Positions 42,173-42,906 of a stretch of 60,184 nt of DNA are shown one piece after another. This DNA is from a virus: IMG/VR virus record IMGVR_UViG_3300006594_000002; one strand, given 5' to 3'. Position 1 is the stretch's first letter. Each line of letters opens with the position of its first letter. Both the position numbers and the translations under genes were made by a program. A model generated the notes under the pieces. It did no database searches, was not told the DNA's origin, and was given only the letters and a program-made list of their open reading frames with translations.

Positions 42173-42460
42173 TTAACCTCTTTGTTTGTACACATGCCAA
42201 ATCAAAGGAATGCCCTGAGGACGCCCTTCGATATAGCTGTGCACTGTACCTACATAAGAGCAGTTAGTATCGGGTAACGGATGTCCTGTACCTCTTATAT
42301 AAAACACCTGTGGTGTCGGCGCCATATCTGTGTCTACTTCGGCCCAGAGGAAAATACGTTTCTGTGAAAGGCGTCCTACGTGTAAGGGTTTAGCCCCTTG
42401 GGGTAAGGAAATCGTCTGTGTATCTGTTACTTCCAGCACGTATTTATAAACTGTGCGCAT
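42173..42460 (-). CDS. conserved hypothetical phage protein
   Basis: MRTVYKYVLEVTDTQTISLPQGAKPLHVG.... The start shares one base with the gpt stop (TGATG). Confidence 0.5.
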   Translation of the reverse strand: MRTVYKYVLEVTDTQTISLPQGAKPLHVGRLSQKRIFLWAEVDTDMAPTPQVFYIRGTGHPLPDTNCSYVGTVHSYIEGRPQGIPLIWHVYKQRG

Positions 42461-42906
42461 CAGCAAGTCTCCCAAGGAAACACTAGCCAAGTATCCTGAG
42501 CGAATTCTTTTTCATACACATCCACAGCATTAAACCCTAAAGGTTTGGCATATATTGCAGAATAACAAGATTTAGGAAAGTAGTAACGTATAAAACTAAA
42601 GGTAGTCCCAGAATCAGCAAGATCGTCAACAACAAGCCAACCAGCTCCCTCTTGAATTGGCAAATTGCCTACTCGTACAATTCCTTTGGTAGACAACTCC
42701 TTGTTGTCTGAATATGTTTCTACGCAAACGACATCCACAATACGGATATTCAATATATGGGACACAATCAGCGCTGTAAATAGGCCCCCACGTGAAACAG
42801 CTATGATGCCTTTAAAAGGTTTATCAATATGTCTCGGCAAAAGTCTTTTAGCCAGATTTGCAGCATCTCGTGCTACATTTTCCCAAGTGAGTACAGCATT
42901 CTGCAT
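42460..42906 (-). CDS. gpt: xanthine-guanine phosphoribosyltransferase homologue
   Basis: It aligns by eye along its length with E. coli Gpt: KGIIAVSRGGL; DVVCVETY (E. coli DTVCISSY); PRPP loop VVDDLADSGTT (E. coli VIDDLVDTGGT); YAKPLG; QDTWLVFPWE. Confidence 0.85.
   Translation of the reverse strand: MQNAVLTWENVARDAANLAKRLLPRHIDKPFKGIIAVSRGGLFTALIVSHILNIRIVDVVCVETYSDNKELSTKGIVRVGNLPIQEGAGWLVVDDLADSGTTFSFIRYYFPKSCYSAIYAKPLGFNAVDVYEKEFAQDTWLVFPWETC

Follow-up and report, generated by a model that had tools for sequence, protein, structure and literature searches.

The window analysed here, the whole 60,184-nucleotide stretch of the IMG/VR virus record IMGVR_UViG_3300006594_000002, encodes a phage Gpt, a xanthine-guanine phosphoribosyltransferase (XGPRT), together with genes of the 7-deazaguanine pathway. 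Comparison with isolate phages and metagenomic viral loci gives strong support to the conclusion that phosphoribosyltransferases (PRTs) of the Gpt family are a recurrent but accessory member of phage deazaguanine gene clusters, linked above all to FolE. The gene itself is of an ordinary enzyme type. What is new is the Gpt-family PRT as a conserved accessory module of phage 7-deazaguanine DNA modification.

The gpt open reading frame (ORF) of the window runs from ATG to stop and specifies 148 aa (Table 1). Its product scores 148.9 bits against the NCBIfam equivalog NF006613 'xanthine phosphoribosyltransferase' (curated cut-off 138), with residues 3-147 on profile positions 9-146, and 35.2 bits against Pfam PF00156 (Pribosyltran, cut-off 26.3). 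Solved XGPRT structures from Yersinia and E. coli are colinear with it at E-values of 5e-28 to 6e-27, query residues 4-146 being matched to chain residues 5-140. A sequence-only reading of this DNA had claimed by eye a likeness to E. coli Gpt along the whole length; the exceeded NF006613 cut-off and the end-to-end match to the structures bear this out, and the motifs listed there are present at residues 32-42 (KGIIAVSRGGL), 92-102 (VVDDLADSGTT), and 137-146 (QDTWLVFPWE). A second assembly of the same phage (L095) yields, by an independent gene call, an identical 148-aa product. Agreement of this extent is far beyond chance.

Conserved residues of the window protein include R39, G40, G41, D94, D95, D98, G100, T102, K121, W140, P144, and W145. 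The columns of the phosphoribosyl pyrophosphate (PRPP) motif and of the SRGG pyrophosphate loop are invariant in alignments of 17 and of 188 sequences. K121, W140, and D98 align with K115, W134, and D92 of the E. coli enzyme, which we take to be purine-site residues, and D98 thereby occupies the position of what is presumably the N7-contacting catalytic Asp of 6-oxopurine PRTs. In the alignment, the D98-equivalent Asp is invariant even among PRTs of approximately 25% identity. Judged by its sequence, the window protein is a canonical Gpt with a predicted guanine/xanthine PRT activity. The gene is preceded by a GGAGAG Shine-Dalgarno motif at a distance of 7 nt and overlaps each neighbour by one base (TAATG upstream, TGATG downstream). 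Thus, gpt lies inside a tightly packed phage operon.

The distribution of such PRTs among isolate phages was studied in INPHARED (50,697 records) by tblastn, with the window Gpt and then with the short PRT of the immuto type as query. The window Gpt retrieved 15 records, 11 of which are phages carrying que genes, namely five phiST-like Cellulophaga phages, four immuto records, and two Brevundimonas phages. The other four comprise two tiny fragments similar to host gpt and two unverified metagenomic records. In Flavobacterium phage immuto, the PRT gene is located between QueE and FolE, in the order PRT-FolE and in a cluster with DpdA, DpdN, and QueF. In Brevundimonas phage StAshley it directly follows FolE and adjoins dNMP kinase and reductase genes, and in phiST it maps near ribonucleotide reductase. 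With the short query 41 records were found, among them 11 PA5oct-like jumbo phages. In one phage of this type, Pseudomonas phage MIJ3 (288 kb; L100:7995-9372), an annotated gpt is the gene immediately upstream of queE, and folE maps to another part of the genome. Altogether, approximately 56 of the approximately 61 PRT-positive INPHARED records are que-linked.

Genes labelled 'GTP cyclohydrolase I' in Vibrio (VpKK5-like), Sphingomonas MMDA13, Stenotrophomonas, and Pseudomonas phages were also matched, and their N-terminal third is a PRT. The products of approximately 300 aa combine this PRT, in which the PRGG, DDxIDSGxT, and WVVFPWE motifs are intact, with FolE. These PRT-FolE fusions are encoded in the setting QueE-QueC-QueD-(PRT-FolE)-DpdA-clamp-PolA, where DpdA is of the classical tRNA-guanine transglycosylase (TGT) type. 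The PRT-FolE fusion is represented, at a coverage of 80% or more, in about 34 INPHARED records, while FolE occurs in 386 of the 50,697 records. The PRT domain is absent in the E. coli Queuovirinae (CAjan, JenK1) and in Pseudomonas phage iggy, and no PRT was detected in the fully substituted CP220-like genomes. Phage iggy (16.5% dPreQ0, strict GA motif) had been considered as a carrier of the fusion, which would have connected the PRT with a system proven to be post-replicative, and was ruled out, its FolE being a plain 207-aa protein.

In IMG/VR, a scan seeded on the PRT motif only gave at least 333 viral stretches that encode a related protein. The best 80 loci were examined with flanks of up to 10 kb, many of them shorter. 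At least one of FolE, QueD, QueE, QueC, QueF, and DpdA is present in 51 of these 80 loci, and the que-positive fraction amounts to 17 of 22 loci whose flanks measure at least 8 kb on both sides and to 22 of 35 clusters at 50% identity. PRT and FolE occur together in 43 loci (39 from IMG/VR, three isolate phages, and the window) and are co-directional in all of them. No gene separates them in 26 of these loci, where both orders occur, and in a single locus they are fused, the fusion ORF (L041:1910-2812) being confirmed by Pfam. DpdA is found in 17 of the 26 PRT loci with multiple que genes. All PRT loci with QueC, QueD, and QueE, unless badly truncated, also contain DpdA, and so do all four complete genomes examined. 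A complete que/PRT cluster without DpdA was not found; the candidate for such a cluster, L015, was rejected, because its 266-aa ORF, although unrelated to DpdA3, represents a classical DpdA (phrog_887, 6.6e-63). QueE was not found in the 20-kb L015 locus, where the expected QueE slot between QueD and PRT is taken by a 254-aa ORF (L015:9154-9918) with neither similarity to the window QueE nor a Pfam match.

The reciprocal sample was anchored on DpdA3 and comprised 80 loci, obtained with a 7-sequence DpdA3 alignment as seed, a 15-sequence alignment being too divergent. A Gpt-family PRT is present in 26 of these loci, each of which also contains FolE, adjacent to the PRT in 21 cases; the other 54 loci show no PRT in the flank. 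Taken with INPHARED and the PRT-anchored loci, these numbers reveal a strong enrichment of gpt together with dpdA. A lack of such enrichment had been named in the sequence-only reading as an outcome that would refute its hypothesis. A coupling to DpdA had been proposed from the sequence alone and is indeed seen, but it is not specific to the kind of DpdA assumed there, both DpdA3-type and classical TGT-type enzymes being represented. The idea that the PRT marks only fully substituted DpdA3 phages is rejected in view of the fusions accompanied by classical DpdAs and of the majority of DpdA3 loci, which lack a PRT.

The ends of the window (positions 1-122 and 60063-60184) repeat each other exactly and in direct orientation over 122 bp, so that it probably represents a whole genome of about 60,062 bp, assembled as a circle. 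The half of the genome that is encoded on the minus strand constitutes a replication module with the polymerase, the que genes, the DUF7352 gene, gpt, the primase, and the MazG-like pyrophosphatase gene. It further encodes an SSB-like protein, an AAA_24 ATPase, a PD-(D/E)XK nuclease, an SNF2 helicase, a DNA ligase, and small ORFs. The true start of FolE is probably downstream of the listed GTG. Megablast of the 4 kb around gpt against the 50,697 phage records gave no match, and the nearest isolates are the Brevundimonas phages, whose polymerase is 39% identical.

The candidate transglycosylase, a 264-aa protein, has no Pfam match. In BLASTP it matches the annotated DpdA of phage immuto (E 2e-9), and in tblastn the same Bacillus and Weizmannia phage ORFs are matched by it and by the DpdA3 of immuto and CP220. 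In Brevundimonas phage StAshley it has a counterpart in the same slot between QueE and PolA. AlphaFold, run with an alignment of 46 homologs, models a TIM barrel with a pLDDT of 96.6, whose best matches in the PDB are ArcTGT 1j2b and TGT 3bll; the DNA preQ0 insertase DpdA 7ui4 is also among the matches, TM-scores being 0.5-0.6. Homology and modelled fold make this ORF a probable, not a certain, member of the DpdA3 family. Placement of 7-deazaguanine in the DNA of this phage, in the DpdA3 manner, is thus a well-founded prediction. The sequence-only reading had spoken of a genome that swaps guanine out of its DNA; FolE, QueD, QueE, QueC, and the DpdA3-like gene are there, while the modification itself stands as predicted.

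Table 1. Features of the window and PRT-FolE fusion genes of isolate phages
Feature	Position	Strand	Evidence and remarks
DNA polymerase A, N-terminal UDG-superfamily domain and 3'-5' exonuclease domain	29027..31315	-	Pfam; 39% identical to Brevundimonas phage polymerase
DpdA3-like DNA guanine transglycosylase candidate, 264 aa	31293..32087	-	Homology and fold; between QueE and polymerase
QueE, radical-SAM 7-carboxy-7-deazaguanine synthase	32087..32857	-	Pfam Radical_SAM; 39% identical to annotated Brevundimonas phage QueE
QueD, CPH4 synthase, PTPS family	32854..33393	-	Pfam PF01242, 2.4e-30
FolE, GTP cyclohydrolase I	33403..34176	-	Pfam PF01227, 8.7e-46, residues 79-255
QueC, 7-cyano-7-deazaguanine synthase	34145..34801	-	Pfam PF06508, 5e-63
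HNH endonuclease, between helicase and ligase of the replication module	39984-40673	-	phrog_374, 8e-42
DUF7352 gene, translationally coupled downstream of gpt (TGATG overlap)	42173..42460	-	Pfam PF24043, 3.8e-24; gene call in L095
gpt, xanthine-guanine phosphoribosyltransferase, type I PRT	42460..42906	-	SRGG loop 38-41; VVDDLADSGTT 92-102; K121; W140; PWE 144-146
MazG-like NTP pyrophosphatase	48806..49300	-	phrog_5658 'pyrophosphatase', 6e-56; no Pfam match
Lar-like restriction-alleviation protein	53363-53743	-	PF14354
PRT-FolE fusion, Vibrio phage VpKK5	L099:6998-7900		
PRT-FolE fusion, Sphingomonas phage MMDA13	L098:6989-7876		
PRT-FolE fusion, Stenotrophomonas phage ytsc_ply2008005c	L097:5754-6647		

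Several features accompany these genes in the window and elsewhere. Fusions of a UDG domain with PolA also occur beside que/PRT clusters in L015 (L015:15983-18580) and in the P0054 contig. The Lar-like protein would give this phage, whose DNA is predicted to be modified, a second means against restriction. NTP pyrophosphohydrolases of the MazG/PRA-PH type are located in or near que/PRT clusters at L003:13410-13934 and in eight other PRT loci as well as in the window; the immuto gene of this type lies between FolE and DpdA, and dGTP is one possible substrate. The fifth most frequent neighbour of the PRT is a family of about 140 aa, phrog_17812 (L083:5851-6270 and 21 other PRT loci), which has no Pfam match, shows an HRHRHLF motif, and could be a divergent T-fold/QueD-like protein.

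The origin of the window Gpt differs from that of the PRT in the most closely related isolates. The window protein alone passes the NF006613 cut-off, while 10 other phage PRTs tested reach 52-110 bits. Its closest relatives, at no more than 46% identity, are bacterial Gpts in ordinary chromosomal settings, and in a neighbour-joining tree it is placed amid 105 presumed bacterial sequences, apart from the main viral clade, which comprises 29 sequences with 26 que-linked ones among them. In addition, gpt has the lowest GC content at third codon positions (GC3) among 60 probable genes of the window (0.31; mean 0.44, z = -3.0). Bacterial nearest relatives, tree placement, and lowest GC3 together suggest that a host-type gpt was captured comparatively recently. 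The Brevundimonas phages carry a PRT of a different lineage beside FolE. This looks like repeated recruitment or replacement of the same PRT function. Six metagenomic homologs on contigs of 50-120 kb, expected to be phage (P0003, P0005, P0055, P0086, P0091, and P0049), were rejected as bacterial loci. Among these homologs only P0054 is a phage contig, with the gene order QueD-QueC-x-FolE-x-x-UDG/PolA-PRT.

Of 54 que-linked viral PRTs, 52 have Glu directly after the C-terminal PW. Among the 105 presumed bacterial sequences this residue is Asp in 96 and Glu in nine; the P0054 protein is one of these 'bacterial' exceptions. The window Gpt has E146 at this position and thus shows the phage-type signature. 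A simple independent capture of host gpt is therefore half supported: similarity and GC3 speak for it, and the shared Glu complicates it. The position is a candidate specificity determinant or regulatory site, and a literature look-up on residue roles in E. coli XGPRT yielded nothing usable for its D140 counterpart. A loop of about 25 residues, located between the SRGG region and the PRPP motif in the window Gpt and in bacterial Gpts, is missing from immuto-type PRTs and fused PRT domains (L003:11971-12366, L054:6683-7081, and relatives). Type I PRTs normally close their active site with this loop.

Regarding function, our confidence is evenly divided for and against the reading we favour, in which Gpt would be a helper of 7-deazaguanine DNA modification that recycles guanine released by DpdA, or other free guanine, to GMP and then to GTP for FolE. 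FolE, QueD, QueE, and QueC would make preQ0 starting from GTP, and the DpdA3-like transglycosylase would exchange G of the phage DNA for the deazaguanine, by which guanine is freed. Gpt would join this or other free guanine to PRPP to give GMP, which host guanylate kinase and nucleoside-diphosphate kinase would convert to GTP, the substrate of FolE. Such salvage would approximately halve the net purine cost per modified position, otherwise one dGTP for replication plus one GTP for preQ0, and Gpt would also clear the product of the exchange reaction. We estimate that a 60-kb genome of 46.3% GC contains about 27,800 G, so that a burst of 100 with all of them exchanged would need and release about 2.8 million purines. 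In a 1-fL cell this would be a millimolar amount, similar in size to the GTP pool, and guanine in free form dissolves poorly. The enzyme family of Gpt and, at gene level, the coupling of the PRT family to FolE/que clusters are observations; each chemical step, the DNA modification, and the guanine source are what we infer.

The sequence-only reading had offered two mechanisms, guanine salvage to GTP and phosphoribosylation of a 7-deazapurine base. The comparative evidence leans to salvage because the PRT adjoins or is fused with FolE, shows no variation in its purine-site residues, and has an accessory distribution. These residues are the same in clusters whose products, predicted or demonstrated, are different bases, i.e., DG in phiST, fpreQ1 in immuto, and preQ0 in the window, and the metabolites common to all these clusters are guanine and GTP only. 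Further points in favour of salvage are the canonical nature of the window Gpt, the full set of preQ0 genes with a DpdA3-like gene on the same strand, and the co-occurrence of the PRT with DpdA3 as well as classical DpdAs. The invariant D98-type Asp fits a substrate having N7, and the accessory distribution fits a booster rather than an obligatory step. Human HPRT rejects queuine and another 7-substituted 7-deazaguanine (PMC5389723).

Several observations weigh against guanine salvage for FolE. In the window itself, gpt and FolE are co-directional but 8,284 bp apart, neither adjacent nor fused. Most hosts already have Gpt or Hpt, so that the gain would be quantitative only, and the conversion of GMP to GTP needs two kinase steps, so that a PRT-FolE fusion joins non-consecutive enzymes. 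The exchange by DpdA3 has never been reconstituted (PMC10516641). Nine T4-like viral loci contain FolE-PRT, QueD, and QueE, with no QueC or DpdA detected in the flank; T4-like marine contigs of that kind are L025, L026, L050, L051, L054, L081, L083, and L091, and their DpdA may be encoded elsewhere on these large genomes. Finally, the near-universal change from Asp to Glu after PW in phages could mark an altered specificity.

The last two observations would also suit a route at the nucleotide level, in which the PRT ribophosphorylates a 7-deazaguanine base (7-carboxy-7-deazaguanine, CDG, or preQ0), kinases and ribonucleotide reductase lead to a dNTP that the polymerase incorporates, a MazG-like enzyme trims dGTP, and DpdA3 is auxiliary or otherwise employed. 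We consider this route unlikely. Its precedent is TubE, a PF00156 PRT that acts on CDG and PRPP within a FolE/QueD/QueE pathway (PMC6112128), a gene set which the nine T4-like loci resemble. The window has a MazG-like gene and a Gpt with the phage-specific Glu, and the positions of the PRT near ribonucleotide reductase in phiST and beside dNMP kinase and reductase genes in StAshley point in the same direction. Cui 2023 (PMC10516641) reported complete substitution in DpdA3 phages, and the chemically analysed isolates with stand-alone PRTs are 100% replaced, phiST, phi13:1, and phi19:2 with dDG and immuto with fdPreQ1; DpdA3 plus DpdL could not be reconstituted in E. coli, for which the authors stated that further enzymes may be needed. 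TubE is a CDG-specific protein of 194 aa that rejects 7-deazaguanine, and it belongs to clusters without a nucleic-acid insertion enzyme (PMC6112128). Several findings speak against the nucleotide-level route: PRT loci with QueC, QueD, and QueE that are not badly truncated, and likewise the four complete genomes, all have DpdA, the fusions reside in clusters with a classical TGT-type DpdA, and a PRT is missing from the flank of 54 of 80 DpdA3 loci and was not detected in the fully replaced CP220 group. Moreover, the PRT is tied to the first and not the last enzyme of the pathway, the Asp at the N7-contact position does not vary, no other PRT tested is as Gpt-like as the window protein, and several host enzymes would have to accept the analogue. 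It appears rather unlikely to us that a nucleotide-level route, leading to a 7-deaza-dGTP analogue which the polymerase incorporates, has its missing enzyme in the Gpt-family PRTs of deazaguanine phages. If this were true, both the 100% replacement in phages of the phiST and immuto types and the unsuccessful reconstitution of DpdA3 would have an explanation, and the view of Cui 2023 (PMC10516641), who proposed that all such phage modifications are post-replicative, would no longer hold.

A connection to deazaguanine is dispensed with altogether if gpt is a generic auxiliary metabolic gene, recently captured from a host and boosting general purine salvage from degraded host nucleic acid. The lowest GC3 of the genome and the bacterial nearest relatives suggest such a recent capture, gpt is 8.3 kb away from the que genes, and que genes are lacking in five of the 22 PRT loci with full flanks and in the 26.5 kb examined of one unverified 55.7-kb 'Bacteriophage sp.' record carrying a PRT. 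This explanation is quite improbable in view of the near absence of the family from isolates outside que-carrying phages, given the que linkage of about 56 of about 61 PRT-positive records against FolE in 386 of 50,697. The Brevundimonas phages, as the closest isolates, also have a PRT, of another lineage and beside FolE, and the window protein bears the phage-type Glu. A variant of guanine salvage would have the phage FolE use PRT-made GMP directly (guanine to GMP to pterin monophosphate to CPH4), or the PRT domain act as a guanine- or PRPP-sensing regulator of FolE. The recurrent fusion and tight adjacency of PRT and FolE are the observations in its favour. We know of no evidence of any GTP cyclohydrolase I using GMP, which counts against the kinase-free form, the intact catalytic motifs of the PRT domain argue against a purely regulatory role, and in the window gpt and FolE are separate and distant; we regard this variant as very improbable indeed.

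Phage 7-deazaguanine DNA is a studied anti-restriction and anti-CRISPR strategy, for which the gene set so far consists of FolE/QueDEC, DpdA, and tailoring enzymes. A PRT tied to FolE adds a layer of metabolic economy, i.e., how a phage might afford replacing up to every G, and it is a concrete candidate for the additional enzymes that were postulated after DpdA3 systems had not worked in E. coli. In addition, dozens of deposited phage genomes contain mis-annotated PRT-FolE fusion proteins. The terms 'phosphoribosyl' and 'salvage' have zero occurrences each in the main text of Hutinet 2019 (PMC6884629) and Cui 2023 (PMC10516641). Queries combining DpdA or deazaguanine with phosphoribosyltransferase or salvage gave only unrelated matches in the searchable literature (NAMPT, ComF, preQ0/queuine salvage). 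Within this literature the link of a PRT to the phage deazaguanine pathway is undescribed, in good agreement with the sequence-only reading, whose author was not aware of any description of the coupling.

Compared with E. coli and Yersinia Gpt (PDB 1a95, 6kqc; NF006613), the window protein is of the same length class, shows approximately 39% identity, and retains all motif residues of the PRPP, pyrophosphate, and purine sites. In contrast to these enzymes, its loop ahead of the PRPP motif is longer by an insertion of 4 residues, it lacks a C-terminal tail, it carries E146 where E. coli has D140, and it is encoded by a phage, within an operon for replication and DNA modification. In Z-genome phages (PurZ, MazZ, DatZ), a phage purine-nucleotide enzyme likewise supports the wholesale change of one DNA base, there before replication and at the dNTP level. 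The window also has a MazG-like gene, but it encodes a transglycosylase, and its PRT is best understood as a recycler; the two systems are not linked by homology. With TubE and the proposed ToyH of Streptomyces tubercidin and toyocamycin biosynthesis, compared by description only, the window protein shares membership in PF00156 and an encoding together with FolE, QueD, and QueE. Unlike TubE, it is a canonical Gpt of 148 aa in a genome with a DpdA3-like gene, whereas the TubE clusters have no insertion machinery. Among the phage deazaguanine clusters described so far (PMC6884629, PMC10516641), the window resembles those of immuto, phiST, and the Brevundimonas phages in having the full preQ0 set and a DpdA3-family protein beside the polymerase. 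To these published clusters, the present comparison adds a recurrent accessory PRT of the Gpt family, adjacent to or fused with FolE.

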